Shown here piece after piece: positions 15,928-60,393 of a DNA stretch of 64,000 nucleotides; position 1 is the first letter of the stretch; the number at the start of each line of letters is the position of its first letter. The stretch is from a virus. Below the pieces are notes generated by a model. The model saw only the letters and a list, made by a program, of their open reading frames with translations, did no database searches and had not been told where the DNA came from. The stretch is from positions 17,338-81,337 of the IMG/VR virus record IMGVR_UViG_3300023179_000072; one strand, written 5' to 3'. The position numbers and the translations under genes were made by a program.

Positions 15928-15930
15928 AAT

Positions 15931-17185: not shown

Positions 17186-17838
17186 GAGATACTATCCTTC
17201 GTGCCCGTGCAAGTAATAACCGAGCGGCCACGACGGATTTCTGGACATACCACAAACTTTGTATCATTAAGAACCACCAACTTCGGCAGTGCTTTTCTCC
17301 ATGCATCTGCCTTTGCTTTGTTCTTCGGTCGCTTGGGTGCAATCTTCATATCGCTATCGCACCACGCAAACTTTTTGAAACCCTGTGATAGTGCTTCGCC
17401 CATATCATTATCATCATGCACACTAGCGTACACATTCATATACTTTTCCAGGCTCACAAGCCTAGAATCGTAAATATGAGTGTAAAACCACATATCGGGC
17501 AGCGCATCACCATCGGCAAGAATACTCTCACAAGCCCATGTCACGTTGGCAACATAGTCTAGGTCAAGTTCGCCATTGAGAAACCAATCGCCACGCTCAT
17601 GCCAACGGATACTCTTCTCACGACGCTTGGCGTCAAGAATCATTGCCCGAATCTTATTCTTCTCAGTCACAACATTCGCAAAACCAGCCGTGCGGGCATT
17701 CTTATATTGATTTTCAGTCGCTTCAGCATAGCAACCATTCCCAAGATAATCGCAGTCAGGAGGACAAGTATCCCCAACCGGACGCGAAACCACAATGCAA
17801 CCCTTACCCAACTTATCATTACCATCAGCGGTTTTCAT
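17134..17838 (-). CDS. Gp88-like Cys-rich phage protein
   Basis: GNDKLG...TCPPDC...CYA...IRWHERGD...YTH; family assignment from memory. Confidence 0.6.
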   Translation of the reverse strand: MKTADGNDKLGKGCIVVSRPVGDTCPPDCDYLGNGCYAEATENQYKNARTAGFANVVTEKNKIRAMILDAKRREKSIRWHERGDWFLNGELDLDYVANVTWACESILADGDALPDMWFYTHIYDSRLVSLEKYMNVYASVHDDNDMGEALSQGFKKFAWCDSDMKIAPKRPKNKAKADAWRKALPKLVVLNDTKFVVCPEIRRGRSVITCTGTKDSISCDLCVRGLANVLFPAH

Positions 17839-18061
17839 AGCTTTCTCCTAGCGTGTCATCCGATTCTACTCTAGATTATCGGCAACGTCAAGTGAAAAAC
17901 TTGAAAAAATTATTTTTGATGCAAGTCCTTATGGGTAAAGAACTTACGATGAATCCGACCCGCCCCGTTTATCCTAAGTCTTTACCCTCAAAGAACTTAG
18001 AAGAAGCTCACAAGCTTTTAAGAATTGCTCGGTAGTTTCAGCATCGCTTTTCATAATCTAA

Positions 18062-18134
18062 TACTGCCGGAAGGATTTGCACCCTCGTAAATCAACTTAG
18101 AAGGTTGATGCCTAATCTACTCGGCCACGGCAGC
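18062..18134 (-). tRNA. tRNA-Arg(TCT)
   Basis: TCAAC-CT TCT AA-GTTGA; acceptor GCTGCCG/CGGCAGT; T loop TGCAAAT. Confidence 0.85.
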
Positions 18135-18398
18135 GTATATGTATTATACCATACCCACTCAACGCCGCAAGCCCACATGGCGTCCCATGCAGGCTATACG
18201 GGTTTGTGGCGTTATCCTTACCACTACATAGTATACTCTAGAGAGGATAACTTCGGAGTTACCATCTCCTTATTCGGTTGGTTAGACCTTCTCTAGGTTG
18301 CACCATTATTGTCCTGCAACGAGAACTTCATACGCGGGACGAGTCCCGCCGCACTATGCCTAAATTCTATTTATACTGGCATAGTCCAGTTTATTGAT

Positions 18399-32687: not shown

Positions 32688-33848
32688 CTAAACTATCCCT
32701 GTAGACCCTTGTTTCTTACTCTTTCTTTGTCTTTTTAGCTGTCTATAAGACAAGCTGAATCTTCTGTTTCTATTAGAATCCAGTATATCAGGATACTTTT
32801 CTTTTAATTTAAGTTCCTTTTCCCATCTGTACGCAGCATATGATACTTTTTTACCGCACCATATTTGGTTACCACTCCAGCGGTCAGCAAAATATTGCGT
32901 TAACTTGTATAAATCTGCTTTAAACTCTATCCACTTTTCCTCAAATTCTTTTGGAAAATCCCCGCGTTTATCAAGACTGTTTTGTCTATGGCTTCCTTTT
33001 TCTAGATGATCAGGATTAAAGCACCGACCGTTACCACATTTATGTCGTATTAATTCGGGATACTCTCCAGTTTTTTCCCAATACGCAACCCTATGCTTTA
33101 ATAGTGTCTTGGTTTGACCAGAGTCTTTGGATTCGCCAATAGTTACCTGCATTCTAGCATAACCACTAACATGAACATCATTACTTTCTTTACATCCCGT
33201 CTCATTATTTATAGTATAAAATTTTGTATAAGAATTATACGTAATAGCTTTTTGTAGCCATGGTCTCAAATATTCTTCGTTATTGGAGGCCCACGTATTC
33301 AATAAGCAATTTTTATTGTATTTATTTAGATAATGTGTTTCTTTCCTCAATAGCTCAGCCTCACTACACTGCTCAATAATAGCATACTTGATAGTACAGT
33401 CTTTATTATTAAAATAAGACAATAACAATTTTGAATTATGCTTATTATGTTTTAAGTCTCTGCAATGTTCTGTTAGTCTTTTTTTAATGTTTATACTACT
33501 ACCTATATATAGTTTGATATCATTAATTTTAAAAGCAGCACACGAATCATTTTTGTCATATTTCCAAACAAAATAAATAGCATAGACACCAGAAACACTA
33601 TTTTTCATTCGTTTGATATTATTAATAGTTTTCCATTGTTTGATCACAGAATGATCTACATTAGTTTTTATATCTCTTAGCTTAAACATATTACTCAAAT
33701 ATGCTTTGCTCACATTATATTTTTTTATTAAACTATTAGTAGTAGCACCAGCTGCATATTCTGCTATTAATTTTCTTTCTTGGTTGCCATTTAATATGGT
33801 TTTAATTTTGCGTTTAGTTTTGTCCTTACTGCCTTTTGGTCTTGGCAT
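32688..33848 (-). CDS. Endonuclease with GIY-YIG and His-Me-finger (HNH) domains
   Basis: SGVYAIY...LYIGSS...KRLTEH; HRVAY...IRHKCGNGRCFNPDHL...N. Confidence 0.75.
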   Translation of the reverse strand: MPRPKGSKDKTKRKIKTILNGNQERKLIAEYAAGATTNSLIKKYNVSKAYLSNMFKLRDIKTNVDHSVIKQWKTINNIKRMKNSVSGVYAIYFVWKYDKNDSCAAFKINDIKLYIGSSINIKKRLTEHCRDLKHNKHNSKLLLSYFNNKDCTIKYAIIEQCSEAELLRKETHYLNKYNKNCLLNTWASNNEEYLRPWLQKAITYNSYTKFYTINNETGCKESNDVHVSGYARMQVTIGESKDSGQTKTLLKHRVAYWEKTGEYPELIRHKCGNGRCFNPDHLEKGSHRQNSLDKRGDFPKEFEEKWIEFKADLYKLTQYFADRWSGNQIWCGKKVSYAAYRWEKELKLKEKYPDILDSNRNRRFSLSYRQLKRQRKSKKQGSTGIV

Positions 33849-33849: not shown

Positions 33850-35475
33850 TTATTTCCTAATAGTGAACTGATGGGTTATTGTTGTTTGTTTCGATACAGG
33901 ATCAAATACCTGAATCTTAACGTTATTATAACCCCTATGAAACCAGTTCCTATTAAATAAAATATTAAAGCCATGATTAGTACCCCACACAGTCTGCATT
34001 AATGCTGGCCTATACTGATTAGCCCACTGACCAGCAACTAATCTATTATTAACTAGTATTCTTACAATCACAGGAGAACTACCACTTATTTCACTATAAG
34101 CCCATCCCGTCACTCTTCTTAAACTTATAAAACCTACATGAACCACAGGAGGAGGAACGGTAACCTTTGTCGAAGCTATTTCACTCCAAGATCCGCTCTG
34201 AACGTCCTGAGCCTTGATACTTATAACATGTTCCCCTACCACCAGACCACCCAGATTAAAAATGAAAGATCCATCCGAGTTTGTTATCTTGGTAGTTACT
34301 AAAGTATTATCTATCCACAACTGAACGTTTACTGATACCGAACTATCAGGATCTTTTGCCCAACCACCTATAACTCTTAAGGTCTGGTAATTAATTGCCC
34401 CAATAGGAGCTTGATTATGAGTATATGGAATCCCCAACAAACTATCTACAGCCGCCTCTAAATTTAATTTGCCCCCAGTAGCTACCTTACCAAATAATTC
34501 TGGAATTTTATCCACGTTTGAGAATAACACAGTCTTAGTTTCTGCAACACTTATTCCTGGCTTAACAGCATTTAATAACGCCACAGCCCCAGCAACAAAT
34601 GGAGAGGCCATGCTAGTTCCACTCATATATCCATAATTGTTATCTGGTAAAGTAGATAAAATCATTGTGCCAGGAGCAGCTAAGTCCACAGTTTCATTTC
34701 CATAATTAGAATATCCAGATAAATTAATATTATCATCCCCTAATGATGCTACACTAATAATATTATCTAAATTATAACAACTAGGATAATTTAAGCTAAT
34801 ATCATTATTGCTAGAACTATTTCCTGCTGCCACCGTAAGCATAATATTACTATCATTTAATTTAGATATTTCATTATACATTACTGAACTATAATTAGTA
34901 CCCATATTCCAGCTAGCATTAGCCACAACTATATTTATATGATAAGTATTTTTCATCATTAAAATATAATCCATAGCTTTTAAGGCCCCACTTGTATATC
35001 CCACCCCCTTATCATCCATAAATTTTAAGCTCATTATACTAACATTCCAATTTATTCCACAAATTCCCAACCCATTATTCCCTTCTGCACCAATTATGCC
35101 CGCAACATGAGTTCCATGACCATAATTATCTTGAATATTATTAGTATTATCAACAAAATTCCACCCATGAATATCATCAACATATCCATTATGATCATTA
35201 TCTATTCCATCTCCTGGTATTTCTCCAGGATTAGTCCACAAATTATTTTTTAGATCATTATGGTTTACATCAACTCCACTATCAATAATAGCCACCACCA
35301 CATTTTTTGATCCTGTATAGTTTGTCCATGCATTATAAGCTGAAGTACTATTTAAGCCCCATTGATCATTAATTCTATTATCATTAGGAGCTATTGATAA
35401 TAGTTGTTTGGATTCTAATTTCTCTATGCCCAGAACTTTTGTGTTCACTTTTGCTCTTCCTTGAAACAAATTCAA
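33850..35475 (-). CDS. Subtilisin-family (S8) serine protease with planctomycete extracellular N-terminal motif
   Basis: IIDSG, HGTHVAG, GTSMASP triad; LGIEKLESKQLLS; real start probably GTG at 35448. Confidence 0.92.
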   Translation of the reverse strand: MNLFQGRAKVNTKVLGIEKLESKQLLSIAPNDNRINDQWGLNSTSAYNAWTNYTGSKNVVVAIIDSGVDVNHNDLKNNLWTNPGEIPGDGIDNDHNGYVDDIHGWNFVDNTNNIQDNYGHGTHVAGIIGAEGNNGLGICGINWNVSIMSLKFMDDKGVGYTSGALKAMDYILMMKNTYHINIVVANASWNMGTNYSSVMYNEISKLNDSNIMLTVAAGNSSSNNDISLNYPSCYNLDNIISVASLGDDNINLSGYSNYGNETVDLAAPGTMILSTLPDNNYGYMSGTSMASPFVAGAVALLNAVKPGISVAETKTVLFSNVDKIPELFGKVATGGKLNLEAAVDSLLGIPYTHNQAPIGAINYQTLRVIGGWAKDPDSSVSVNVQLWIDNTLVTTKITNSDGSFIFNLGGLVVGEHVISIKAQDVQSGSWSEIASTKVTVPPPVVHVGFISLRRVTGWAYSEISGSSPVIVRILVNNRLVAGQWANQYRPALMQTVWGTNHGFNILFNRNWFHRGYNNVKIQVFDPVSKQTTITHQFTIRK

Positions 35476-35533
35476 AACTCTATATCAGCACAAGTTAGCA
35501 TAAAAAGCTCAAAAATCAATAAGAATTTTTTAT

Positions 35534-36481
35534 TTATCTTATATAAATTTCTACTCTTGCAGACCTATTGATACCTGTACTATTATTACAACAATTAATT
35601 ATATCACCAGCTGAATAATTACCAAAATTAGAATCCAGACCAATACCATTGCTAACATCATTGGTTCCTGCCCAATAACCCCAACTATTACTAAGGGTGG
35701 ATGGAGAAGAATAATTTCCTTCTCCATTGTCATTCCAACCAAAACCCCATCGTACTCTTGCGGTACCATAGTTCCAAAAGGGTCTTGGATAACTTTTAAA
35801 ATTGAATCCATAAAAATTGATATCTTTCTGTGTTGCAAAAATATTATTCCCCCAGTTTGGAGAATTTGTTGCTAGTCCTTTAAAATATCCTCCATAGTTT
35901 CCTCCTGTATTAACACCACCAGTATTAAAGGTGCCAGCAGTATTAAAAAAATCGATTAAACATATTCTATTTCCATCAAAGAAATTATTCTCCAGCCATG
36001 TCCAACAATTAAAAGGATTAGGAGTTATTGCTCCACCCCCATTATTTACTAAAATATCCGGCCAAATAGCCATAATATCTTTAGCTTGAAAAGTATTCAT
36101 AATATGAAATTTAGCATCACTATTATTTCTATTAGCATCACTATGATTTAAAGTATTAGCTTGTGTCCAATAACTAGAAATATAATTAAATTTAGTACTA
36201 CCCAACGAAGCTTTCATAGCCAACATCCATGCTCCTCCATCAAAAGATGAATCCATTAAACAGTATGTTAAATTATTATTAATTAAATAAACTCCGTTAG
36301 GAGCTGTTGGTAACATATTTTTAATTTCTAAAGCATTATTAAAACTGATTGACCCATTAGTTGTTGGTGTTATATTATTTGATTCTATAGAATATGGACC
36401 ATTTCCACAATTATTAGCTGAGTATACTCTAAATTTATAATTAGTATTATTACTAAGATTATTAATTTTTAACATTTTCAT
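35534..36481 (-). CDS. FN3 C-terminal half plus fibrinogen-like domain protein
   Basis: NNLSNNTNYKFRVYSANNCGNGPYS; GVY...YCLMDSSFDGGAWML. Confidence 0.7.
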   Translation of the reverse strand: MKMLKINNLSNNTNYKFRVYSANNCGNGPYSIESNNITPTTNGSISFNNALEIKNMLPTAPNGVYLINNNLTYCLMDSSFDGGAWMLAMKASLGSTKFNYISSYWTQANTLNHSDANRNNSDAKFHIMNTFQAKDIMAIWPDILVNNGGGAITPNPFNCWTWLENNFFDGNRICLIDFFNTAGTFNTGGVNTGGNYGGYFKGLATNSPNWGNNIFATQKDINFYGFNFKSYPRPFWNYGTARVRWGFGWNDNGEGNYSSPSTLSNSWGYWAGTNDVSNGIGLDSNFGNYSAGDIINCCNNSTGINRSARVEIYIR

Positions 36482-36499
36482 TTTTATTTTTCCTTTTTT

Positions 36500-39400
36500 T
36501 TATTTTGGATTTATAAAAGGAGCATCAGATGGTGTAAAATTATCATTATATCTTGCAACACCCTTGGTTATACGGAATTCATCAAAATAACCCAGAATAT
36601 AACCAGCATTTCCGTTATCCCCACCTATTGCTAATGGCAAATTATCATTAATATTAGCTGATGAAGATCCTCCACCACAATAAATTCCATTAATATACAT
36701 TCTTATTGTGCCATTATCTCTAACAACTGCGACATGATTCCACTGATTAGGAACAACAGAAATATTGCCAGGTAAAAAGCTTGATGTTTCATCAATCCAC
36801 ATTAAGACGTTATTTACACCATTATTATAATTAGTATCTAACAAGAAATACCAACCTCCAGGATTAGGTGCTGTTGCGGTAGATGCTATTGATCCCCATG
36901 TGTAGTACCCCGATATGCTTCCTGTCCAATATAACCAACATTCTATTGTAAAGTTTTGAGTTCCAAATTGTATAGAAGAACTATTATTTACTATAGCTTT
37001 TTTACCCCATGAAGAGCAATCTAACGAATTATTGAATTTGCCTATTTGGTTTGTTATAGCAGCACCATTTATAGCATTTACAACATTACTATTAATGGAA
37101 CTATCAATCAGATTGGTATCTCCATTACCGCTATCCATGTGTAACAGTAGCGAAACATTATTTATATAAGGATCAGGATCACTGAATGGAACATTTGAAG
37201 GATTACAATAGTCGGGGAACGGCGCGGTGGGCGGAACGAAATTGGAGGTGTAACGGGCCATTGACGAGATGCGCAAATCGTCGATGAAACCCGAAAAATT
37301 AAACCCGTAGTTCGGGGCACTCCCAATCGAAATGCCGCTATTCGTGACGGGGAACGTCTGAGTGCTCGTGCCGATTAACGTGCCGTCCTGATACATCGAA
37401 TTGGTGCCGACATAACGAACGCACGCTATGTGCGTCCATGCGTCAACGCCAACGGAACCGCCCGCAATCGCCCCTGTGAGTGCGTTGTTCCAGTAGAGCG
37501 TTCCGTTTGGCGTCACGTACACGTTCATGCCTCCGACACCACCACGGATGTTGCCGGCCTCAAAAAAAGTTTGTACGCTACCACCACCGGCGGCGCGTCG
37601 CATCCACAGTTCAATCGTAAAATCGCCCGACCAATCAAATCCCGGCAGCGACGCAGACAGGTAATCGCCGATGCCGTCGAACGCCGCGGACTGAGATCCG
37701 AACTTGCATTGCGCCGACGATTGCGTTGCGTTGCCATTCGCCGTGACGGTTTTGGGAGTGCCGCTGGAATCGGTAAACGACGATCCGTTGCCTTCCATGT
37801 GTAACAGTAGCGAAACATTATTTATATAAGGATCACAATCACTGAATGGAACATTTGGTGGAGTGAAATTATTAGTATAAACTGCTTTGCTAACTATTCT
37901 AAGTTCATCTATATAACCATTTAACACATACTGGGATGCAGGATGTTTTCCTATTATTAGAGGAGCATTTTCTGTTACAGAATAATATGAGCCACTAGCC
38001 TGACTTTGTAGGTTTCCATCTACAAATAAAGATGTTAAATTACCATCGTAAACCACTGCTATATGATGCCAAGTTTGGGAAGATGGTTGGTTTATAGCTA
38101 TATTTCCCCATGATGGACTACCTGGATAAGCCATAGCATTTAACCACTGCCAGTATAAAGTATTATTTTCTACAAACAAATTGTATTGTAGTCCATTTAC
38201 ATAATTCCACTCACCTTGTGAAGCTCCTTTTGAGATTAAAACCTTATCTGTATTATCTATAAAATTAACAAACATTTCTATAGTAAAGGGTTGATTATTT
38301 AATCCGAGATCAAACTTAGTATCATCTGGTATCGAAATATAAGAATCATTCGTACCATTTACATATAAACTAGATCCTCCAAACTTGCTTTGATTCGTAC
38401 TAATTTTTGCATTATTATATGGTGTTATAGATGAATTATAACAACTACTATCAATAAAGTTAGTGCTTCCATCATTACCATCAAAATGTAGAAGTAAAAC
38501 ACAATCTTGACATTGATTTGAGGTCGGGGTTGGGGTTGGGGTTGGTGTAGCGGTTGGAGTTGGTGTAGCGGTTGGAGTTATATAAGCATCACAATCACTA
38601 CTGAATGGAGCAGTCGGAATTGCAATATTACTGTCTGATATTAAATTAAGTGCAGAGCCTGAGCCTATAGTAAGGCGTAATTCATCAATATAACCAACAA
38701 AAGATGGAAAATAATTTTCTCCACCATACCCAATATAGGTAGGCTCAGTATAAAAAGTTATAATACTATTATTAAAACCACTACCAGCAAAATTTCCATT
38801 TATATACCAACGCCATATATTAGATGCGCGAGAAAATGCAATATAATTCCATTGATTAACCACAACCTGACTATTAGCGGATAAATATAAATCGTTAGCA
38901 TTAGGAAGATTATTTATATGAATTTTAGGAACTAGAGAATCAATATGAACCACAAACTTTGCATGATCACCTGATCCGCCGCTAGTTGCATAAATTCCAT
39001 AACGCCCAGAAGATTGTGTTGGATAAATCCAGCATTCGAAAGCTAAATCACTATCATTAATATTAAAATCAGAATCATATTCACTATAGATCCATCCATT
39101 GTTGGTAATCATAGAATTACCAAATTTGGCGAACCATTTAAATTGTACTGGATTACCCGGTTCAGACAATATTAATGTTTTTGGAATATTACTAGAGTCT
39201 ATAAATACATTACTTCCATCCTCACCATCAAAATGTAGAAGTAGAACACATTTACATTGATTTGGGGTCGGGGTCGGGGTAATGTATTCGTTCCAAATCG
39301 ATCCACCATCAATACTATATTCTACTATATATTTTAGTGGTGATTTACCACTATTAATATCTGATATTTCATCCCAAATTAGATACGCTTCGCTATCACC

Positions 39401-40663
39401 CGCTATTGTTAGGATATTTGTAGGAGCTTCTGTTGGTGTTGTACAATTATTAGAATCAGGAATGACACTATTACTATTAACACTATATTTAGTATCATTA
39501 ATATTATATATAGCTCCAATTCTAAAAATATAAGAAGTTCCATTATTTAAATTTTTAAGTAGAATATAATTTAAAGTTGGATCTATATAATTTAAATAGT
39601 TATTCCAACTAATACCATTATTAATACTATATTGTATATTATATCCTAATACTTTTAATATATGATTATTAGGAAAGCTCCAACTTAAAAGAGCACTAGT
39701 ATCTCCACTTTCCGCCTCCACATTGAATGGTATATCCAACTTTACTTCACAGGACTCATAAGATCCTATACCAGCACTATTTATTGCAGCTACTCTAACT
39801 AAATATGTTTTATCAATAGTTAAATTATTAAGATTAATATTTGTATTTATAGAATTATTAATATAATCAACCCAATCTATTCCATTATTATTAGAATACT
39901 GTATACTATAATTAATAATTTCTCCGCCATTATCATCATCTGGTTTAGTCCATAATAATGATATACTGTTATTAGAATCAGCATGAGCAGATAAATTAGT
40001 AATATTATTTGGAATCGATATTTGTGTTCCTGTTGATGGAAATGGAGCAAGAATACTATTTATATTAAAATTATCGTTATATCTACATGATCCTACTCCT
40101 TTTGTAATTCTTAACTCATCTATATAGCCATTAAATGTTTCACTACCATAACTATGCATACCAGTACCAATATAAACTTCTCTAGAGTACCCCAAATCAG
40201 AAGCTGCTGCCCCACCACTAATTGATAAAGATTGGTTACCATTAATATATACGCTAATATTTCCATTATTTCTCACCAATGCTAAATGATTCCAAGCATT
40301 TAGGGTCACACTATTAGCTCCCCAATTCCAAGATGTGCCATTAAAATATAATTGGTCTCCATTTGTGCCCATTCTCCATAATAATCCACTATCATATCGT
40401 CCTATAGAAATAAGAGTTCTCCAATTAATATTATCTAAAGGATAAATCCACATCTCCACTGTAAAATCTTCTGTTCCAAATCCAAAAGCAGGATCGCTTT
40501 CTATAAAAACATACGGAGATCCACCGTTAGGAGCATAGTCACTTCGTCCACTTAGTTTTAAAGATCCCGATTCTGTACCAAATCTATCTTTATTCTTACT
40601 TATAAAAGCCCCATTATATAAAGTAACATTTTTAGGGGTTATAGATGAATCAATAATATTCAT
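36500..40663 (-). CDS. Large LamG (ConA-like) x5 / FN3 surface or fibre protein
   Basis: Repeated LLLHFDG..DSS..FTIE.W..WxH.A..GYIDELRI modules; AAGGA RBS before ATG 40663. Confidence 0.85.
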   Translation of the reverse strand: MNIIDSSITPKNVTLYNGAFISKNKDRFGTESGSLKLSGRSDYAPNGGSPYVFIESDPAFGFGTEDFTVEMWIYPLDNINWRTLISIGRYDSGLLWRMGTNGDQLYFNGTSWNWGANSVTLNAWNHLALVRNNGNISVYINGNQSLSISGGAAASDLGYSREVYIGTGMHSYGSETFNGYIDELRITKGVGSCRYNDNFNINSILAPFPSTGTQISIPNNITNLSAHADSNNSISLLWTKPDDDNGGEIINYSIQYSNNNGIDWVDYINNSINTNINLNNLTIDKTYLVRVAAINSAGIGSYESCEVKLDIPFNVEAESGDTSALLSWSFPNNHILKVLGYNIQYSINNGISWNNYLNYIDPTLNYILLKNLNNGTSYIFRIGAIYNINDTKYSVNSNSVIPDSNNCTTPTEAPTNILTIAGDSEAYLIWDEISDINSGKSPLKYIVEYSIDGGSIWNEYITPTPTPNQCKCVLLLHFDGEDGSNVFIDSSNIPKTLILSEPGNPVQFKWFAKFGNSMITNNGWIYSEYDSDFNINDSDLAFECWIYPTQSSGRYGIYATSGGSGDHAKFVVHIDSLVPKIHINNLPNANDLYLSANSQVVVNQWNYIAFSRASNIWRWYINGNFAGSGFNNSIITFYTEPTYIGYGGENYFPSFVGYIDELRLTIGSGSALNLISDSNIAIPTAPFSSDCDAYITPTATPTPTATPTPTPTPTSNQCQDCVLLLHFDGNDGSTNFIDSSCYNSSITPYNNAKISTNQSKFGGSSLYVNGTNDSYISIPDDTKFDLGLNNQPFTIEMFVNFIDNTDKVLISKGASQGEWNYVNGLQYNLFVENNTLYWQWLNAMAYPGSPSWGNIAINQPSSQTWHHIAVVYDGNLTSLFVDGNLQSQASGSYYSVTENAPLIIGKHPASQYVLNGYIDELRIVSKAVYTNNFTPPNVPFSDCDPYINNVSLLLHMEGNGSSFTDSSGTPKTVTANGNATQSSAQCKFGSQSAAFDGIGDYLSASLPGFDWSGDFTIELWMRRAAGGGSVQTFFEAGNIRGGVGGMNVYVTPNGTLYWNNALTGAIAGGSVGVDAWTHIACVRYVGTNSMYQDGTLIGTSTQTFPVTNSGISIGSAPNYGFNFSGFIDDLRISSMARYTSNFVPPTAPFPDYCNPSNVPFSDPDPYINNVSLLLHMDSGNGDTNLIDSSINSNVVNAINGAAITNQIGKFNNSLDCSSWGKKAIVNNSSSIQFGTQNFTIECWLYWTGSISGYYTWGSIASTATAPNPGGWYFLLDTNYNNGVNNVLMWIDETSSFLPGNISVVPNQWNHVAVVRDNGTIRMYINGIYCGGGSSSANINDNLPLAIGGDNGNAGYILGYFDEFRITKGVARYNDNFTPSDAPFINPK
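37134..37857. repeat. 64-bp direct repeats flanking a GC-rich LamG module
   Basis: 37134-37197 versus 37794-37857, two mismatches. Confidence 0.9.
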
Positions 40664-40673
40664 TATTTTATCC

Positions 40674-43409
40674 TTATGCGTCCATATGAAGAAGAAGTTT
40701 TGTTTTATTATATAGATTATCTGTTGCTCTAGGAGCAACATTTACAGCAGAAGATATTTCGCTGTATGGTCCAATTCCTGCAAAATTAATATGAGCTATT
40801 TTAAAAATATAAGTAGTATTATTTTCTAAATTAACTATATTTATAATATCATTTAATAGATAAGATATAAAATTATTCCAAGAAGATCCATTATCACTAG
40901 AGTATAAAACAGAATAACCTTTACTAGGCGAAGAATAAGTTGTACTTATATTTGGATTTATAGCTATAAATACTTGCTTATCATCTGGTATGATATTAAT
41001 TATTTGTGGAATATCAGTTATAGTAGATAATTCAACAATATTGCTATATGGTCCAGAACCAACACTATTAGTAGCTTTAATTCTAAATAAATATGAATTA
41101 TTTGTGCTTAAATTATATAATTGTCTATTATTAATACTATTATTAATATTAGCACTATATTTAATATAGTCTATATGCGAATATAATTCATTACTACAAT
41201 TATTGCTTTTAATATGATTATGAGAAAAATTCTTAAAACTATTACTAAATATATCATTATAATAAGTTTGTACTATTCCATTTATATTTATAGCTAAATT
41301 TTTTAATATAGGATTTATTGATATCTTAATAGTATTAAAAATTCCTGGATCAGAAAAAATTAAACTATCATGCAAAGACCAAACTGTAGATTGTCCTTGT
41401 GGTTCTATACCTACCACAACCCTAGATGGATAATTAATACCTAATGCTGAATTCCACTCTGTTTCTTCTGTTCCATAGCTATTATAGTATATTTTAACAG
41501 ACCCTAAATCATTATAAAAAACTATACTAGGATTTCTATTAGTATCAAATGTACTAAGAAAACTGATTTCAAAATCAAATAAATTTTGATCTTCAATAAA
41601 ACTATAAGAACTAAAATTATCTTGAGAATTACAGCAAAGTGTTATTCTATAATTGTTAATACTACAATTATTACCTGATAATATTTGAAAATTGTTATTA
41701 AAATTTACTAATTTATTTCGAGTATTTAGAGTTATAGTTTTTGTATCGCTATAAATATCAGTATATTCTATCCAAGAATCTCCATTATCATTACTATATT
41801 CTACAATATAATTATTTATACTAATAATATTATTTTTAGATATTGGATTTGGATAATTTGGATTATTCCATGATAAATTAATAATATTATTATATTCTAT
41901 GAGAGAAAGATCCAAGGGTTCTGAAGGAATAGTTGGAGGTGATCCAAAATCAGGATAAGGACGATATGATACTGTAAAATTAGGATATATACCATTATAT
42001 ATACGATATCTTGCTACCCCTTTAGTAACTCTAAATTCATCTATATAACCAGTAAACATCTGATTTCCAGTAGTATCACTGCCAATATATGCAGATGCTA
42101 TTGATGAATACTGTCTATCATCATTAATCGTAGCTGATACAGCTCCATTAACATATAAATTTAAAATACCTGAAGTTTTTACTAGTGCCAAATGTGTCCA
42201 TGTTGATAGTGGTATAGATGGCCCATTAATAATATTTTCATTATTATTAGCTACTACTATATTTCCTGAAGATGTGTTAGCATATATAGCTACTCCCTCA
42301 ACCGTTGAATCTTCATATCTTCTATTATCAAATAATATTTGATTATCATTTTTATTAGATAACCAAACCCAAGCTTCTATAGTATAATCTTCTGATCCAA
42401 AACCTAATCTTTCACTATTTTCAATAATTATATAATTACTACCATCAAGATACAAACTATTACCTCCCATAACGCTAGTATTATTACTAATAATAGGATT
42501 ATTATATGGTATTATATTATGTTTATATATCGAATAATCAACTAATAATTTATTTATATCATTGTCATTATATGATGATATCTCAAAACTATCTATATAT
42601 CTTGCTATTTTTTTGGTTACTCTAATATTATCCATATATCCAATAAAAGAATACTCAAAATTAATTAGTTGTCCAATTAGAGGATTAGATCTTTCACAAT
42701 TTATATCTTGTGAAAATACCATAGTATTATTTTGTATTTGACCGTCAATAAATAATCTACATAATCCGTCTTTTCTTGTAACTGCCACATGTGTCCATTT
42801 ATTAATTTGTATATTAGTATTTGATTGAAGTCTTGTATTTCCATAAACTCCACCAGGAGTAAAATCTAAAACAGAACCATATATACCAAATATATAAGAA
42901 TTATATGAAATTTCATTTCTTGTTTCTATAAATGGAGAATACGAAGAGTCCAATGAAGTAGGATATATCCATAACTCTATTGTGAAATCATCAGTTCCAA
43001 AACTTACACAATCAGAAGATCCTATCTCTAAATAAGAATAATCTTTTCCATTAAGATATAAACTTGTATTACCTTCTTTTTTTTCATCTGATGATAATTT
43101 AGCATCTCCTGCTCCTATAACAGCATTATTATATTTTGATATATCTCTAAAATCTATACTATTATTTTCTCCTTCCATATCCATTAATAAAGATGTATTA
43201 TCTACATAAAAATTATCCATATGTATTAACAAAGATGTATCATAATAATAATCGTCAGTATAATATGTTGGGGTTACTAATACGTATCTACTGAATAAGC
43301 CGTCTTTATTATTGTTTACAGCAGCAACTCTTACTTTATACGTAGAATTATTTTTTAATCCTCTTATAGCAATATTAGTATTAGTATTATTAGTAGTAAT
43401 AGTATTCAT
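40674..43409 (-). CDS. LamG/FN3 protein
   Basis: Two LamG modules and FN3 repeats. Confidence 0.85.
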   Translation of the reverse strand: MNTITTNNTNTNIAIRGLKNNSTYKVRVAAVNNNKDGLFSRYVLVTPTYYTDDYYYDTSLLIHMDNFYVDNTSLLMDMEGENNSIDFRDISKYNNAVIGAGDAKLSSDEKKEGNTSLYLNGKDYSYLEIGSSDCVSFGTDDFTIELWIYPTSLDSSYSPFIETRNEISYNSYIFGIYGSVLDFTPGGVYGNTRLQSNTNIQINKWTHVAVTRKDGLCRLFIDGQIQNNTMVFSQDINCERSNPLIGQLINFEYSFIGYMDNIRVTKKIARYIDSFEISSYNDNDINKLLVDYSIYKHNIIPYNNPIISNNTSVMGGNSLYLDGSNYIIIENSERLGFGSEDYTIEAWVWLSNKNDNQILFDNRRYEDSTVEGVAIYANTSSGNIVVANNNENIINGPSIPLSTWTHLALVKTSGILNLYVNGAVSATINDDRQYSSIASAYIGSDTTGNQMFTGYIDEFRVTKGVARYRIYNGIYPNFTVSYRPYPDFGSPPTIPSEPLDLSLIEYNNIINLSWNNPNYPNPISKNNIISINNYIVEYSNDNGDSWIEYTDIYSDTKTITLNTRNKLVNFNNNFQILSGNNCSINNYRITLCCNSQDNFSSYSFIEDQNLFDFEISFLSTFDTNRNPSIVFYNDLGSVKIYYNSYGTEETEWNSALGINYPSRVVVGIEPQGQSTVWSLHDSLIFSDPGIFNTIKISINPILKNLAININGIVQTYYNDIFSNSFKNFSHNHIKSNNCSNELYSHIDYIKYSANINNSINNRQLYNLSTNNSYLFRIKATNSVGSGPYSNIVELSTITDIPQIINIIPDDKQVFIAINPNISTTYSSPSKGYSVLYSSDNGSSWNNFISYLLNDIINIVNLENNTTYIFKIAHINFAGIGPYSEISSAVNVAPRATDNLYNKTKLLLHMDA

Positions 43410-43425
43410 TTGTTTTATATTAATC

Positions 43426-46400
43426 TTAATTAGTAGTAATATTTCCAGTAATTAAACCACACCCATTAGACGTTATATTTCCAATAAATATATTTGTAAA
43501 TGTAATATTGTCCATACTCCCAGAAACAGTAAAGTTAGATCCTCGTACTCCATCGCCATATGTAGAATAAATTTTTGCTGCTGTTGGTAATCCTATTACT
43601 CCATCTCCCAGATCAAGAGTATATGAAGATCCGACTCCTGGTATCTCTCCGCTATCAGAGCAATTATCATCAGTAAATACTACAACATTTACATCTATAT
43701 TATCAATAGTTAATATAATTCTTGAACATCTGGGGTGATGAGACTCTGTGATACTAGTACTAGTATATTGTAAATATCTATATCCTTTAGGAATATTCGA
43801 AGGGGTTGGCGTCGAAGTTTTAGTTGGAGTTATGGTTAGAGATACAGAAGGAGACGGAGTTGGAGTTGGAGTAGATTCAATTTGTTCCTCAAATGCGCAA
43901 ATTCCAAAAGTACCCGTGCCCCCACCATATTTCCAGTATTGGATCCATAAAGTTTCTCCCGGAGTTCTATCGCTTAATGATATAAGAGGTTGATATCCAG
44001 GACCAGAATCATCGTCGCAAGTTATTAAATTTAAATTATTACAATCGCTTCCAGAATAAACAGCCATAGCTCCATCTATTATACCTATACCTTGTATAAT
44101 TACAGATCCGGATTCCGGAACTATTAAATAGAACCATATACTATTATTATCTGAATAGTTGGCGCACGGAGGTATCCAGCCACTGATATCTAAGTATCCA
44201 ATATTATTATAAGTTAAAGGAATACAAGATGATCTATTAACAGACAATTGTATTGCATTACAAGGATAAATATTAATTTTTTCTATCATTTCATATTCTA
44301 CTATATAATGGTCGATATTATCATGAATAAAATCTAAAGAATTATAAAGCGTTATATTTATATCTATAGTATTATTTGATTCTATAGCTATTAAATCAGA
44401 AACTATATTTTGCTTTTTTCTAGAATCTCTAAAAACAAATTGGTTTAAAGAACTATTTGATGGAATAAAATTATAAGTATAAACAGCAACTCCTTTACAA
44501 ATACGAAGATCATCTATATATCCTCTAAATTCATTGCCTATTCTAACTTGACCGCTAAATCCTGACGAATATACTGTAGATTCTAATAAAATACCATTTA
44601 AATACATAGATATAATATTTGAGTCTCTAACAAGACAAATATGGTTCCATGTATATCCTTGTGCTGTTATAGTGTGTCCTCCACCTAAGATATAATTATC
44701 ATTTCCAAAGAAAAATAATCCTCGATAATCGTCGTGTAACCAAAGACTATGATTACCAATAAATACAATTCCTGGCTGTCCACCATACAGGTCTTTTGGT
44801 CTGGTATCATATATCCAAAATTCTATAGTAAAATCTTCTTTTTCATCAATTACAATATTTTTATCTATTAATAAATAATCTTTCTCCTCAAAGTATCCAC
44901 TACTTAATCCAAATTTATTTTCATCTTCACTAATTTTTACATTACCATAACAGGTTATTGGTAATTGGTATTTGCTACTATCTACAAAATTATTGGTATT
45001 ATTCTGGCCCTCAAAATGTAGTAATAAAGATGCTGGTATACCATTAGGATCAGAATTATCAAATGGATTATTTGGTGGTATAAAGTCATTATCATAACGT
45101 GATATACCTTTGGTTATACGGAATTCATCAAAATATGCAAGAATATAACCATCATTTCCATTATCCGCACCTATTGCTAAAGGTAGACCATCATTTATGT
45201 CAGCCGACGAAGATCCTCCTCCGCAATAAATTCCATTAACATACATTTTTATCACACCACTACTACGAACTACAGCTATATGAGTCCATTCATTACTAGG
45301 TATAGAAATATTACCATTTAATGGTCCTGATGTTTCATCTATCCATACTAATCCATTATTATTATTAGTATCCAATATCCAGCGCCATCCGTTAGTATTT
45401 GGGGCCGTAGCCGTAGAAGCTATTGAGCCCCAAGTATAGGAACCAGAGATACTGCCTGTCCAATATAACCAGCACTCTATTGTAAAATCATTAGTTCTAA
45501 ATAATATAGAAGAGCTATTATTTACAATAGCTTTTTTACCAGATGACGAACAATCCAAAGATTGTTCGAATTTACCAAGGTTATTTGTTATCGATGCTCC
45601 ATTAATACCATTAACAATATTATTGTTTAATGAACTATCATATAGAGTTGTTGTTCCATTAATACCGTTCATATGAAGTAATAAAGAAACATTAGAATTA
45701 TAGGGGTCATAATTTTCTAATTGAGTTGTTCTGGGAGTAAAATTAGATATATAAATTGCTTTATTATTATTTATAATCAATTCATCTATATAGCCTAATA
45801 ATGTATATTGATAACCAGCTATAGGATGTTTTCCTATTATTAGAGGAGCATTTTCACTAACAGAATAATATGAGCCATTAGAGGTTGTTTGAATTTCTCC
45901 ATCTATAAATAATGAAGTTAAGTTTCCATCATAAACAATTGCTAAATGATGCCAAGATTGTATACTTGGCACAGACGCAAATATCTCGCCATAAGAATTA
46001 TCACTGTTTAACCATCTCCAATAAATATTTTCATTTTCTATTGACAACGTATACTGTATACCATTTATTGAGTTCCATTGATTAATCGAAGCTCCTTTTG
46101 ATACTAAAAATTGATCAATATTATCTTCTAAATTAATAAATAATTCTATTGTAAATGGCTTATTATTTAAACCTAAATCTAAATTTATACTATCCTGTAT
46201 TAAAAGATAAGAATTATCAACACCCGGTATATATAGACTTGAACTACCTAAATATTTCGTATTATTATCTAGTATCACACCTCCATATGGTGTGACTGTA
46301 AAATTATTTATAGAACTATCAATAAATGTTCCATCAGGATTAATGTTATCAAAGTGCATAAGTAAAGATGTGGTATAATTAGTTGAAATTATATCTAATA

Positions 46401-47367
46401 GAGTAGGAGTATTACTAGGCGTTATTGTAATTGTGGGTGTTCTGGTATTTGTTGGTGTTGTTCTTGGAGTGTGGGTATTCGTTGGCTCTATAAATGATGT
46501 ACTTGTGGGAGTTAGTCCGGGAGTAGACGTACTTGTGGGAGTTAGTCCGGGAGTAGACGTACTTGTGGGAGTTAGTCCGGGAGTAGACGTACTTGTGGGA
46601 GTTGCAGTAGATGTTCTTGTTTGAGTTCTTGTATTTGTTGGTGTTCTTGTAGAAGTTTTAGTTTGAGTCGGTGTAATTGTTTGTGTTGGAGTGACAGTTT
46701 GAGTACTTGTTTGAGTTTGAGTTACTGTTGGAGTACTTGTTTGAGTTGGCGTAACAGTTTGAGTTGGAGTTAGTCCGGGAGTATTTGTTCGAGTAGGAGT
46801 CAAACTAATTGTCGGAGTTGCTGTTGGATCGTTTGTTGGAGTTGGTGTTTTTGTCGCTGTTTTTGTAAGAGCAGGAGTTTTTGTAGGAGTTATAGTTTGT
46901 GTATTACTTGGTGTTGTTGTTATTGTAGGAGTATTAGTAGATGTTACTGTAGCTGTTATTGTAGGAGTTGCAGTAGATGTTGAAATTGGTGGACATATTC
47001 TTGTTTGTGTTCTTGTTACTGTTCTTGTTGGAGTGGGAGTTCTGGTATAAGTTCTGGTTAATGTTCTCGTGGGTGTATTTGTACGAGTTAAAGTAGGAGC
47101 TATCGTTGGTGTTCTACTCGCATCAGGAGTAGGACACATAATCGATAGTGATTCTGTAGGTGTTACAGTTTGTGTAGGAGTTACTGTTGGGGTTGCAGTT
47201 TGTGTTACTGTTGGTGTTGGAGTTACAGTTTGTGTAGGAGTTACTGTTCGAGTTGCGGTCCTTGTAGGAGTTAGTGTTATGTCTAATATTTTATATAATG
47301 AACCAGAATCATTTATATTTTGAATAGAATCATCATTATTAATATCTGAATTATCATTATATATCAT
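43426..47367 (-). CDS. Thr/Pro-rich stalk plus LamG x3 protein
   Basis: About 290 aa of TPT repeats, then LamG modules and Cys-containing C-terminal domains. Confidence 0.85.
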   Translation of the reverse strand: MIYNDNSDINNDDSIQNINDSGSLYKILDITLTPTRTATRTVTPTQTVTPTPTVTQTATPTVTPTQTVTPTESLSIMCPTPDASRTPTIAPTLTRTNTPTRTLTRTYTRTPTPTRTVTRTQTRICPPISTSTATPTITATVTSTNTPTITTTPSNTQTITPTKTPALTKTATKTPTPTNDPTATPTISLTPTRTNTPGLTPTQTVTPTQTSTPTVTQTQTSTQTVTPTQTITPTQTKTSTRTPTNTRTQTRTSTATPTSTSTPGLTPTSTSTPGLTPTSTSTPGLTPTSTSFIEPTNTHTPRTTPTNTRTPTITITPSNTPTLLDIISTNYTTSLLMHFDNINPDGTFIDSSINNFTVTPYGGVILDNNTKYLGSSSLYIPGVDNSYLLIQDSINLDLGLNNKPFTIELFINLEDNIDQFLVSKGASINQWNSINGIQYTLSIENENIYWRWLNSDNSYGEIFASVPSIQSWHHLAIVYDGNLTSLFIDGEIQTTSNGSYYSVSENAPLIIGKHPIAGYQYTLLGYIDELIINNNKAIYISNFTPRTTQLENYDPYNSNVSLLLHMNGINGTTTLYDSSLNNNIVNGINGASITNNLGKFEQSLDCSSSGKKAIVNNSSSILFRTNDFTIECWLYWTGSISGSYTWGSIASTATAPNTNGWRWILDTNNNNGLVWIDETSGPLNGNISIPSNEWTHIAVVRSSGVIKMYVNGIYCGGGSSSADINDGLPLAIGADNGNDGYILAYFDEFRITKGISRYDNDFIPPNNPFDNSDPNGIPASLLLHFEGQNNTNNFVDSSKYQLPITCYGNVKISEDENKFGLSSGYFEEKDYLLIDKNIVIDEKEDFTIEFWIYDTRPKDLYGGQPGIVFIGNHSLWLHDDYRGLFFFGNDNYILGGGHTITAQGYTWNHICLVRDSNIISMYLNGILLESTVYSSGFSGQVRIGNEFRGYIDDLRICKGVAVYTYNFIPSNSSLNQFVFRDSRKKQNIVSDLIAIESNNTIDINITLYNSLDFIHDNIDHYIVEYEMIEKINIYPCNAIQLSVNRSSCIPLTYNNIGYLDISGWIPPCANYSDNNSIWFYLIVPESGSVIIQGIGIIDGAMAVYSGSDCNNLNLITCDDDSGPGYQPLISLSDRTPGETLWIQYWKYGGGTGTFGICAFEEQIESTPTPTPSPSVSLTITPTKTSTPTPSNIPKGYRYLQYTSTSITESHHPRCSRIILTIDNIDVNVVVFTDDNCSDSGEIPGVGSSYTLDLGDGVIGLPTAAKIYSTYGDGVRGSNFTVSGSMDNITFTNIFIGNITSNGCGLITGNITTN
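46499..46603. repeat. 30-bp tandem repeat, about 3.5 copies, coding TPTSTSTPGL
   Basis: ACTTGTGGGAGTTAGTCCGGGAGTAGACGT unit. Confidence 0.95.
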
Positions 47368-47404
47368 ATATTATTAATTTTATATTGAATATATAAAATA
47401 TATA

Positions 47405-47650
47405 TTATTCAATACTTTCTATATTATTTGATAATGTTTCTTTTTTAACAGGACGCCCTCTTTTTTTAGATATTCCTAGTTTTCTTCGTTGTCTTCTAAT
47501 CATTCCTGTTGTTATAGTTTCTCCAGTCATTTCACTAAGTTTTTCAGCTAAATTTTTATCATTATAATCATTAATATTATTTTTAATATATTCCAGCTCA
47601 TTAGAAGCCCATTTTTTATAAGATCTCATAAAATTCTCCTTTTTTGACAA
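47405..47650 (-). CDS. Small HTH-like DNA-binding protein
   Basis: KKW...ELEYIK...LAEKL...IRRQRRKLGI..KRGRP. Confidence 0.6.
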   Translation of the reverse strand: MSKKENFMRSYKKWASNELEYIKNNINDYNDKNLAEKLSEMTGETITTGMIRRQRRKLGISKKRGRPVKKETLSNNIESIE

Positions 47651-58302: not shown

Positions 58303-60393
58303 ATGCCAGCCCTCACCACTATTCAGTTAAGAAGAGGAACATCAGCTCAATGGGCTAGTTCAACAAATGCATTAGCTCAAGGAGAAATGGGCTATGATAC
58401 CACGATTAAAAAATTCAAAATAGGAGATGGTACTAGTTTATGGTCTAGTTTACCATGGGCAAATATAACAGGATCAGATTTTGTAGCTGGTAGCGGTATT
58501 AATTTATCTTATAATTCGCCATCAGGATCAGTAACAGTTTCAGTATCAGGATTATCATCATCTTCTATTAGCGATTTTAATAGTAGTGTTAGCGGATTAT
58601 TACCTGTTAAAAGTATCACAGCTGGTAATAATATTACTATTACTCCTTCTGGAGACAAAAATTTTGTTATTAGTTCACCAGTAAATTCAGCTACTGTTCA
58701 GGATCTTATAGGATCCACTATAGTTGCAGGTAGTGGCATAAGAACAAGTTATGATAGTATTAATAAGGTAGAAACTATATCGGTTAGCGGATTAAATGCT
58801 TCTTATATTAGTGATTTTAATACTACTGTTAGCGGATTAGTAAATGGTATATATGCTCCATTAGTTAATCCAGCTTTAACAGGAACTCCCACAGTTCCTA
58901 CAGCAGCTGTTGATACTAATACTAATCAAATAGCTAGTACCTCATTTGTTCTTAATCAAGCATCATCTAGCACTCCACTAGCTAATGGAAGTGCTGCTGT
59001 GGGTATTTCAACAAGATATGCTAGAGCTGACCACGTTCATCCAACTGATTCATCAAGAGCAGCTTTGTCTGGTGCAGTATTTACAGGATCAGTTTCTATT
59101 CCTAGTGGTACTGGTAATTTTAATACTTTAACAGTAAATAATACTTCTGTTAGTGTTAGTGGTCATACTCATACATCAGCAAATATTACAGACTTTAATA
59201 GTGCTGTTAGTGGACTATTAAATGTAAAAAGTTTGGCTCAAGGAAGTGGTATTGGAATAGTTAATAATGCTGGAGTTCAAACTATTAGTGTTACTGGTAT
59301 TCCAAGTTCTTTTATAACAGATTTGGGCAACTTAGCTACTACCCAAGTTATTGGCAGAACAGGAATTGCTCTAACATATGATTCTGTTAGTGATATTATG
59401 TATATTGATGTTTCTGGGGTGTCTTTTAGTGGACATAAACATGTTTGGGGTGATATTACTGATGCTTCAACTAAAGCCTCATTAACAGAATTATCTTATT
59501 TATCCGGTGTTGTTCCTGGATCAGCAAGTGCTAGTAGAGCTTTGGTGGTAGACTCTAGTAAAAATTTAACAGGTATTAATAGTTTAATTACAGCTAGTGA
59601 TTTAACTGTTGGAGGTAATCTTACTGTTCAAGGAACCACAACAACAGTTAATAGTACTACTGTTAATATTGGTGATAATATAATCAGAGTTAATACTAGC
59701 GGATTAAATACTGGTGGGCTAGAAGTTTATACTGGTAGTACTACTCAATCGGTATTATGGAATAATACATCTAATAGATGGGAATTTAGTGGTGGAAATA
59801 TTTATACTAGCGGTAGTTTTATAGGAAGTTTAAGCGGAAATGCTAGCACTGTTACTAATGGTATTTATACTACAGATGTTGGAACTGTTACTAACTCTAT
59901 GTTGGCTGGTAATATAGCTAATAGTAAATTAGTAAATAGTTCTGTTACTATTGGTTCAACCCCAGTAGCTCTTGGTTCAACAATAACATCAATATCTGGA
60001 CTATCAACAGTAACATCTAATACTTTTGTTGGATCTTTGAGCGGCACAGCCACCAATGTTATAACTAATGCTAATTTGACGGGTCCAATAACTAGTATCG
60101 GTAATGCTACTACCATATCATCAGGAGCTATAGATAACTCTCATATTAGTTCATCTGCTGGTATATCTTATAGTAAACTAAATCTTTCTAATAGTATAAC
60201 TAATAATGATATTAGTAGTAGCGCAGCAATAGCTATTACTAAATTAGCTAGTAGTGGAATTACAATAGGATCAACATTTTATAGTTTAGGATCAACAGTT
60301 TCATCATTAAGTGGCTTAACCAGTATTGGTGGATCTAGTTCGTCAAGCCCCACCACCTTGTCATACTGTGTTATTGATGGCGGTACACCCTGA
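58303..60393 (+). CDS. Fibre protein with Mtd-N/hyaluronidase-like N-terminus
   Basis: IQLRRGT.AQW...LAQGE.GYDT...FKIGDG; AG.GI repeats; Ser/Thr/Gly-rich. Confidence 0.78.
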   Translation: MPALTTIQLRRGTSAQWASSTNALAQGEMGYDTTIKKFKIGDGTSLWSSLPWANITGSDFVAGSGINLSYNSPSGSVTVSVSGLSSSSISDFNSSVSGLLPVKSITAGNNITITPSGDKNFVISSPVNSATVQDLIGSTIVAGSGIRTSYDSINKVETISVSGLNASYISDFNTTVSGLVNGIYAPLVNPALTGTPTVPTAAVDTNTNQIASTSFVLNQASSSTPLANGSAAVGISTRYARADHVHPTDSSRAALSGAVFTGSVSIPSGTGNFNTLTVNNTSVSVSGHTHTSANITDFNSAVSGLLNVKSLAQGSGIGIVNNAGVQTISVTGIPSSFITDLGNLATTQVIGRTGIALTYDSVSDIMYIDVSGVSFSGHKHVWGDITDASTKASLTELSYLSGVVPGSASASRALVVDSSKNLTGINSLITASDLTVGGNLTVQGTTTTVNSTTVNIGDNIIRVNTSGLNTGGLEVYTGSTTQSVLWNNTSNRWEFSGGNIYTSGSFIGSLSGNASTVTNGIYTTDVGTVTNSMLAGNIANSKLVNSSVTIGSTPVALGSTITSISGLSTVTSNTFVGSLSGTATNVITNANLTGPITSIGNATTISSGAIDNSHISSSAGISYSKLNLSNSITNNDISSSAAIAITKLASSGITIGSTFYSLGSTVSSLSGLTSIGGSSSSSPTTLSYCVIDGGTP

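Follow-up and report, generated by a model that had tools for sequence, protein, structure and literature searches.

Divided FN3 and LamG domains at three successive gene boundaries in a putative fibre cluster of a lake phage

Four co-directional genes of an uncultured freshwater (lake) phage probably encode the parts of a single fibre or adhesin, branched and modular, that would bind glycans and whose subunits would be joined non-covalently by fold complementation. The genes lie on the minus strand at 43426-47367, 40674-43409, 36500-40663 and 35534-36481 of a 64,000-nucleotide stretch of DNA (the window), which is the last 64 kb of the 81,337-bp viral record IMGVR_UViG_3300023179_000072, and all of them stop with TAA. 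The phage is large and T4-like by its terminase, and the record is estimated to be 58% complete. At each of the three boundaries between the genes a domain is divided: FN3 is cut between strands C' and E at the first and third boundaries (junctions a and c), and LamG is cut after its first strand at the second (junction b). A first-pass annotation made from the letters alone had named these four open reading frames (ORFs), their order and their strand, all of which were borne out by an ORF check, and had proposed that the products (P0001 to P0004) assemble by beta-strand complementation. That proposal is supported by the conservation of the cuts among relatives and by a structural model of junction c, from which we infer that the halves bind one another.

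In the proposed assembly the proteins would form a serial chain, P0001-P0002-P0003-P0004, in which two FN3 domains and one LamG domain would be composites of neighbouring proteins and hold the chain together. Towards its C-terminus, P0001 would give FN3 strands A-C' and the N-terminus of P0002 would add strands E-G; the last 15 residues of P0002 would supply strand 1 to the LamG domain that opens P0003; and the FN3 N-half of P0003 would be completed by the N-terminus of P0004, which is predicted to end in an intelectin-type lectin. Side arms would branch off at the FN3 joints and the intelectin-type lectin would form the tip, the likely ligands being host glycans. Since each FN3 domain is cut in the C'-E loop, the protein that carries the N-half (the socket) would have a free C-terminus, to which lectin modules could be added, and from which they could be lost or exchanged, with the joint left undisturbed.

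The four genes and their divided domains

Family-specific hidden Markov models (HMMs) were built for the whole FN3 domain, the FN3 N-half, the FN3 C-half and LamG. The features of the cluster are given below in the order of transcription; residues of P0003 are numbered from the methionine at 40663 unless stated.

Gene 1, 43426..47367, minus strand: P0001, 1313 amino acids (aa); a 30-aa head and a long Pro/Thr-rich linker (about 300 aa) lead to three LamG domains (residues 331-973), after which come a degenerate FN3 N-half and an arm of two domains at the C-terminus
Candidate FN3 N-half (socket) of gene 1, 44293..44409, minus strand: residues 987-1025, weak match to the N-half HMM
C-terminal arm of gene 1, 43429..44292, minus strand: about 290 aa; a beta domain rich in Cys, joined by a Pro/Thr linker to a small, putatively galactose-binding-like domain
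Junction a, spacer 43410..43425, minus strand: 16 nucleotides (nt) after the TAA at 43426-43428, no clear ribosome-binding site (RBS), change of frame
Gene 2, 40674..43409, minus strand: P0002, 911 aa; an FN3 C-half, two LamG domains, an FN3 domain interrupted by about 200 inserted aa, an intact FN3 domain and a tail that matches LamG strand 1
Plug of gene 2 (N-terminal FN3 C-half, strands E-F-G), 43281..43406, minus strand: residues 2-43, C-half HMM match over 6-43
Insert of gene 2, 41151..41750, minus strand: about 200 aa, residues 554-753, between an FN3 N-half (491-553; 41751-41939) and a C-half (754-792; 41034-41150)
LamG strand-1 donor tail of gene 2, 40677..40721, minus strand: 'DNLYNKTKLLLHMDA', residues 897-911, of which 897-910 align to LamG HMM positions 2-15
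Junction b, spacer 40664..40673, minus strand: 10 nt with TAAGGA after the TAA at 40674-40676, next gene in the +1 frame
Gene 3, 36500..40663, minus strand: P0003 from M27, 1387 aa; a LamG domain lacking strand 1 (residues 2-203), two complete FN3 domains, an FN3 N-half and a four-LamG arm
LamG acceptor lacking its first strand, 40055..40660, minus strand: begins at LamG HMM position 22, with the same start in the relatives G001, L138, L245, P0158, P0175 and P0217
FN3 N-half (socket, strands A-B-C-C') of gene 3, 39260..39445, minus strand: residues 407-468
Four-LamG arm of gene 3 after the FN3 N-half, 36515..39259, minus strand: LamG HMM matches
Junction c, spacer 36482..36499, minus strand: 18 nt with AAGGA after the TAA at 36500-36502, next gene in frame
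Gene 4, 35534..36481, minus strand: P0004, 315 aa; an FN3 C-half (residues 2-35, 36377-36478) and an intelectin-type lectin (residues 40-315, 35537-36364)

The start of gene 3 is placed at the ATG at 40663, not at the upstream ATG at 40741 of a longer ORF, because six homologues begin at the same residue with 'M(S/N)IIDSS'. The FN3 copies at the junctions are incomplete within one chain, P0003 407-468 being an N-half and P0002 6-43 and P0004 2-35 being C-halves, and the other FN3 copies in P0002 and P0003 are complete. Over the whole window, six FN3 C-halves stand against five strong and one weak N-half, and they follow one another in bracket order. The Pfam FN3 family (PF00041; cut-off 25) is matched by P0002 with 52.2 bits and by P0003 with 73.9 bits; P0004 alone reaches 20.3 bits, which is under the cut-off, and covers profile positions 52-81 only, that is, half a domain. 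Laminin_G_3 (PF13385; cut-off 27.6) is matched by P0001, P0002 and P0003 with 150, 127 and 297 bits, and the family LamG HMM counts three, two and five modules in these proteins.

The first-pass annotation had read a divided LamG domain at junction b and a divided FN3 domain at junction c, and both readings hold. At junction b the tail of P0002 corresponds to HMM positions 2-15 and the acceptor in P0003 starts at position 22; at junction c the N-half of P0003 scores 61 bits and is followed by four LamG domains, and the C-half that opens P0004 scores 50 bits. The RBS that it had seen at these two junctions are likewise present in the spacers. Its reading of junction a stands in part: the C-half at the start of P0002 is clear at 45 bits, and the N-half in P0001 is weak. 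The weak half sits where the annotation had placed it and its Y[IV]VEYE motif aligns; in the syntenic gene of the metagenome contig L245 (ORF 91-882) a clear FN3 N-half occupies the matching position.

Another FN3 domain, inside gene 2, had been described as carrying an insert of about 190 aa. The insert is real, at about 200 aa, and the L245 orthologue has the same FN3 domain uninterrupted. The domain in P0002 is truly interrupted, because residues 561-587, which the whole-domain HMM stretched into the C-half, score -8 bits with the C-half model. No Pfam match was obtained for this insert or for the head of P0001, and the C-terminal arm of P0001 gave only a weak match to GBD_T9SS_assoc (E 0.07). 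Gene 2 also contains an extra segment resembling LamG strand 1, 'YYYDTSLLIHMDNF', at 43212-43256 (P0002 residues 52-66), just ahead of the complete LamG domain that follows the FN3 plug. The 'YYYDTSLLIHMDNF' doublet is conserved in two relatives (L245 ORF 917-3040 and G001 P0125).

A complex model was made for junction c, pairing P0004 (with its two closest relatives as alignment) with residues 425-500 of P0003 (ORF numbering). It scored 0.70, and the best of three controls scored 0.00; 58 of 80 solved complexes attained this value, as did 2 of 110 mismatched pairs. The runs agree in at least 95% of contacts, and the predicted local distance difference test (pLDDT) of the partner is at least 73. 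In the model the gene 3 socket contacts P0004 residues 1-45, and the closest pairs are those of a canonical FN3 domain: P0004 15-22 with P0003 471-476 (strands F-C), 4-9 with 451-454 (E-B) and 29 with 439 (G-A). At this junction, then, the two halves come together as an FN3 domain in the model, and the controls are clean. The result may partly reflect memory of FN3, a much-solved fold; the model shows the pieces at junction c to be compatible halves, which does not amount to binding.

The AlphaFold2 model of P0004 has a pLDDT of 86.8 with a 79-sequence alignment (42 with 15 sequences). On its own, the segment of residues 1-40 is predicted to have little regular secondary structure (pLDDT 62-70), and the lectin domain is modelled confidently. 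The latter aligns with intelectins, namely human intelectin-1 (4wmq, 6usc), Xenopus XEEL (4wmo, 5zc0) and lamprey LSVL (7e1e), with VIA-align Z scores of 14.1-14.5 and a root-mean-square deviation of 3.5-4.0 Å over 214-222 residues, compared with a Z of only about 7 for ficolin/fibrinogen domains. Foldseek likewise pairs it with intelectins (E 9e-6 to 1e-4, probability 1.00), and the family profile also matches 7e1e (E 0.003). As modelled, the tip has an intelectin-type (X-type) lectin fold, assigned by fold at a sequence identity of just 14-18%; it shares that fold with the intelectins and differs from them in being fused to half an FN3 domain in a phage. The intelectin-like domain has a wide distribution: more than 400 proteins match it at E <= 0.001. 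It is also present, with 34-46% identity and without an FN3 half, in the cultured cyanomyoviruses P-TIM40, S-H9-1, S-H9-2, ACG-2014h and P-HM2, and in each of these records the match falls under two annotated features.

Conservation of the cuts and of the stops

The entire four-gene chain, in the same order and with the same three junctions, is found in L245, an unrelated metagenome contig of 10.2 kb with a G+C content (GC) of 0.37. Its first gene has a Pro/Thr linker, the clear FN3 N-half mentioned above and a 163-aa arm. Its second gene (ORF 917-3040) is collinear with P0002 from end to end, starting with 'MTTINTNSS...YRARVSAINN' and ending with '...DNLYNKTRILLHLDSN'. The third starts with 'MSIIDSS...' and ends with '...WENYTDPTP' immediately after the FN3 N-half, and the fourth consists of 'MSISTTKLLSGL...YKFKVAAVN' followed by a lectin domain.

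The same cuts are seen in two larger records. In G001 (L093/L136; 139,964 bp, 94% complete) a gene ends with '...NKTRLLLHLDSN' and TAA TAG, and 15 nt further on the next gene begins with 'MSIIDSSPKPKTVT'; over 300 aa its product has 51% identity with P0003. This P0003 homologue ends with two FN3 N-halves and a LamG-like domain, and each of the next two genes opens with an FN3 C-half, the last one bearing a lectin domain. The same G001 proteins also hold unsplit FN3 domains with LamG nested at the same loop. In the 237,915-bp record L137/L138 the LamG domain is cut in the same place; a gene there ends right after an FN3 N-half ('...WTNYP') and the next one starts with the C-half. There is also a second conserved cut inside LamG, at which G001 P0124 (L136 8391-11948) and L138 3130-5985 start at HMM position 51-53; a donor piece for it was not found, and in G001 a small unrelated ORF precedes P0124.

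The cut ends are better conserved than the proteins to which they belong. The FN3 plug of gene 2 is 54% identical to the N-terminus of G001 P0125, compared with 30% for the rest of the protein. The donor tail of gene 2 recurs in G001, L138 and L245; 11 of 18 residues (61%) are identical in G001, compared with 33-40% for the bodies. A profile-free search of 1.8 billion representative proteins returned P0158, P0175 and P0217, which begin with 'MSIIDSS', show 39-58% identity and align from residue 1 of both query and target, whereas LamG modules within longer proteins reached only about 35% identity in the same search. In the lectin family, P0005 and P0006 (63-65% identical) open with the same FN3 E-F-G half. 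In P0028, P0040 and P0064 a complete FN3 domain is fused ahead of the lectin domain, and the lectin family holds both split and unsplit forms. Among the relatives, the domains are thus cut at the same residues and in the same gene order, not at random break points, and unsplit nested FN3[LamG] arrangements exist as well. These nested forms and the plain FN3-lectin fusions are as would be expected after gene fission with complementation retained.

No cultured phage in the phage collection has the split LamG+FN3 start; T4-like cultured cyanophages have only generic LamG domains, in baseplate wedge proteins. By analogy with these wedge proteins, it is plausible that the chain is located on the virion.

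Errors of assembly or sequencing in a single long gene could also give stops at such places, and the region is repetitive, with frequent breaks in the Logan contigs. To assess the reads, Logan contigs from four runs, two of them from a different study, were aligned to 35400-47500. The probable source run spans all three junctions with zero differences and is the only one in which junction b is spanned explicitly. Second-study contigs over junction c (35400-37133) and over junction a (42509-43827 and 43181-43678) differ by substitutions only, with no indels; at junction b the second-study runs have depth and no difference is listed, though none of the pieces listed extends across it. The 30 strain differences on the list all lie outside the stops, starts and spacers. 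Junctions a and c are thus kept in contigs from an independent study, and the same stops recur in four further assemblies made from different samples. Between them, these contigs and assemblies exclude the explanation by artefact.

A different possibility is that the stops are real and that the ribosome passes them, so that one protein of about 3,900 aa would result, with read-through at junction c and frameshifting, +1 or otherwise, at the other two. In favour of this view, the genes on either side of junction c share a frame, shifting by +1 at the GCA-TAA-G of junction b would again give a LamG domain of normal length, and Fraser et al. are said to have described in 2006 that phage Ig-like domains are sometimes added via frameshifting. 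A conserved frame relation with a shift or read-through signal was not found among the relatives, however. At junction b the downstream gene is shifted by +1 here, whereas at its equivalents in G001 and L138 the frame is kept, with two consecutive stops (TAA TAG) in G001, and at one G001 FN3 junction the genes overlap in different frames (L093 ORFs 3340-8112 and 8097-9992). Each downstream gene begins at an ATG of its own, always at the same residue, an RBS is present at junctions b and c, and the conserved set consists of a stop, a short spacer and an ATG. Since the frame relation varies among relatives, the conserved feature is the existence of two polypeptides and not recoding, which on a comparison of these sequences appears very unlikely.

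Variable arms and the accessory island

The sequence that follows the FN3 N-half varies widely. It is absent from L245 gene 3, from L138 and from P0158, which looks complete by comparison with L245; it comprises one domain in L245 gene 1 and in G001, two in P0001 and four LamG domains in P0003. Modules 2 and 4 of the P0003 arm are DNA paralogues of modules 1 and 2 of P0001 (69-73% identity). The third module of the P0003 arm stands apart:

Third LamG module of the P0003 arm, 37133..37794, minus strand: GC 0.544, compared with about 0.30 for the gene

In the second-study runs X2 and X3 this module is cleanly skipped (660 nt, in frame, with 42-nt shared ends). Its features suggest that a lectin module of foreign origin was gained not long ago and that strains of the population differ in having it. 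The first-pass annotation had envisaged swappable lectin arms hanging from the FN3 loop; the variability that it presumed is present, from nothing to four modules, and the placement has to be corrected, the arms being C-terminal extensions after the cut and not strictly insertions in a loop. The cut between C' and E leaves the socket protein with a free C-terminus, to which modules could be added without constraint, and this fits the variability of the arms.

The 30 strain differences listed across the cluster comprise 19 non-synonymous and 11 synonymous ones. An excess of non-synonymous changes is common in host-recognition genes. The gene 1 arm also differs in length at 44082-44084, with an in-frame gain of 6 nt in X2 and two adjacent 3-nt insertions, 6 nt in total, in X3. 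One low-depth X3 contig matches 40674-40721 (the tail DNLYNKTKLLLHMDA and its stop), and farther upstream its sequence is unlike that of the window; it may stem from a strain in which another protein body carries this donor tail.

A region this mosaic invites the view that the gene boundaries are scars of fission or recombination, left when cassettes were inserted into a once-continuous giant adhesin gene, and that the half-domains do not reassemble, the proteins being independent or in part dead. Its internal DNA paralogues, the foreign LamG domain of GC 0.54, the module indels and the 19 to 11 ratio of non-synonymous to synonymous changes would all suit such a history, as would the degenerate N-half of P0001 and the G001 gene that starts in mid-LamG, for which a donor was not found. 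On the other hand, the cut points persist among lineages that are just 34-58% identical, and the cut ends are the best-conserved parts; scars leave this conservation of both position and sequence unexplained. Isolated half sandwiches would be unfolded and should decay, and the plugs and sockets match in number and order. We regard scars as an improbable explanation.

It is also conceivable that the half-domain sequences serve mainly as homology handles for the exchange of modules between co-infecting phages, or as recombinase sites in the manner of a shufflon, with complementation being incidental. The loss of a module via a 42-nt shared end points in this direction, as do the X3 contig in which the donor tail is kept below a different upstream body and a tyrosine-recombinase-like gene inside the G001 cluster (P0126; L136 16322-17179), immediately downstream of which stands a gene whose product opens with an FN3 C-half. 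However, no tyrosine or serine recombinase (PF00589, PF00239) was found in the 58%-complete record of the phage itself, and its four genes are co-directional, so that switching by inversion would fail. What is conserved is the protein sequence, and this holds between DNA of GC 0.25-0.37 and DNA of higher GC; moreover, handles leave unexplained why the stops lie inside domains. Such a role as the main one appears distinctly improbable.

The cluster lies between the early-gene region and a divergently transcribed packaging and head module. Among the products encoded by the record are a large terminase of T4 type, a head protein and a sigma factor; ten clustered tRNA genes and a pistol ribozyme (18328-18390, 53.9 bits) lie in the early region, at 14491-18390 of the window. 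Eighty phages (L002-L081) with terminases 75-92% identical to that of this phage retain the flanking genes (homologues of 30524-31081 and 47405-47650), and they have about 3-4 kb at this spot compared with 16 kb here. The four fibre genes were found in none of the 80. The fibre cluster is part of an accessory, variable island, because these relatives keep the flanks without the four genes. Two further genes belong to the same island:

Directly downstream of the fibre genes, 33850-35475: S8 subtilase, 541 aa
Next to it, 32688-33848: fused GIY-YIG/HNH (homing) endonuclease

A few of the terminase relatives have the subtilase or the endonuclease at this spot, without the fibre genes.

Several observations weigh against a chain assembled by fold complementation. 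The cluster is accessory, as just described. The N-half of P0001 scores 4.7 bits (E 1.3e-3 within that protein), although it is the sole match there. The G001 cluster has three orphan plugs and two orphan sockets. Finally, the conserved sequences at the junctions could instead be maintained by recombination between phages.

Outside the fibre cluster, the general scans with Pfam and PHROG of the larger flanking ORFs named only the subtilase, the GIY-YIG/HNH endonuclease, the sigma factor and the packaging and head proteins, and left several ORFs without a match. Two genes further along the window, 58303-60393 and 60422-63175, encode one protein with an Mtd N-terminal domain and one that is FGE-sulfatase-like with two FN3 domains. 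Mtd_N and FGE-sulfatase-like domains are typical targets of diversity-generating retroelements. A retroelement sought for these genes was not found, the 58%-complete record showing no reverse transcriptase and no template or variable repeat. The GC climbs to 0.52 at 62-64 kb of the window. Scans for promoters and terminators within the fibre cluster gave background levels. No near-identical phage record was found by megablast, and exact-word scans of IMG/VR with P0004 or P0002 alone gave no useful match.

Significance and comparison with known assemblies

Modular assembly of long fibres and fast change of specificity are known in detail only for a few model phages. If the chain proposed here is correct, a simple rule would tell from the sequence which fibre proteins join one another, and in what order. 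It would account for gene borders that annotation pipelines take for errors or pseudogenes, and it would mean that lectin arms can be swapped without breaking the fibre. We lean slightly towards a wider form of the proposal, in which large environmental phages would use a general plug-and-socket code: FN3 and LamG domains split at gene borders, self-assembly in a fixed order into branched lectin fibres, and free C-termini as landing sites where populations gain or lose lectin arms, foreign ones included. With the same slight preference, we would see in such a code a natural form of split-domain assembly distinct from the donor-strand exchange of pili, which could be reused to engineer the host range of phages in laboratory strains and to build protein nanostructures.

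In chaperone-usher and type V pili, a subunit with an unfinished Ig-like fold receives the missing strand from its neighbour, giving a non-covalent fibre of separately encoded subunits. The cluster is similar in that an incomplete fold would be completed by a neighbour; the incomplete folds are observed here, and their completion is suggested by the model and by conservation. It differs in that the subunits are unlike one another, each joint would be unique and not repeated, and three strands would be donated at the FN3 joints instead of one. A phage fibre is, moreover, made in the cytoplasm, where a chaperone and usher are not expected; none was recognised in the general Pfam and PHROG scans, which left out 47405-47650 and in which these families were not searched for by name.

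The long tail fibre of T4 is reported to be a chain of four separately encoded proteins, gp34-gp35-gp36-gp37 (PMC5537660, PMC3004832). The two systems are alike in having four adjacent genes, and the present chain would likewise be joined serially with a receptor-binding part at the far end; the terminase of the present phage is T4-like. They differ in construction: the T4 fibre consists of trimeric beta-structures joined end to end, whereas the present proteins would resemble beads of FN3, LamG and lectin domains with split globular joints.

Full-text literature searches turned up no account of phage FN3 or LamG domains divided between neighbouring genes, and the nearest solved structure is the baseplate tripod of Lactococcus phage Tuc2009, in which a C-terminal beta-hairpin of BppU completes the sheet of BppA domain 2 and so forms a composite titin-like (Ig-like) domain (PMC4742702). 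We saw no sequence relation between BppU or BppA and the fibre proteins. Tuc2009 presents a single joint seen by crystallography, whereas the present cluster would form a chain, read from sequence and a model, in which three-strand FN3 halves and a LamG strand 1 are donated at three successive gene boundaries. Like the Tuc2009 tripod, the present chain would be a phage adhesion device in which terminal strands complete the Ig-like sandwich of a neighbouring carbohydrate-binding protein.

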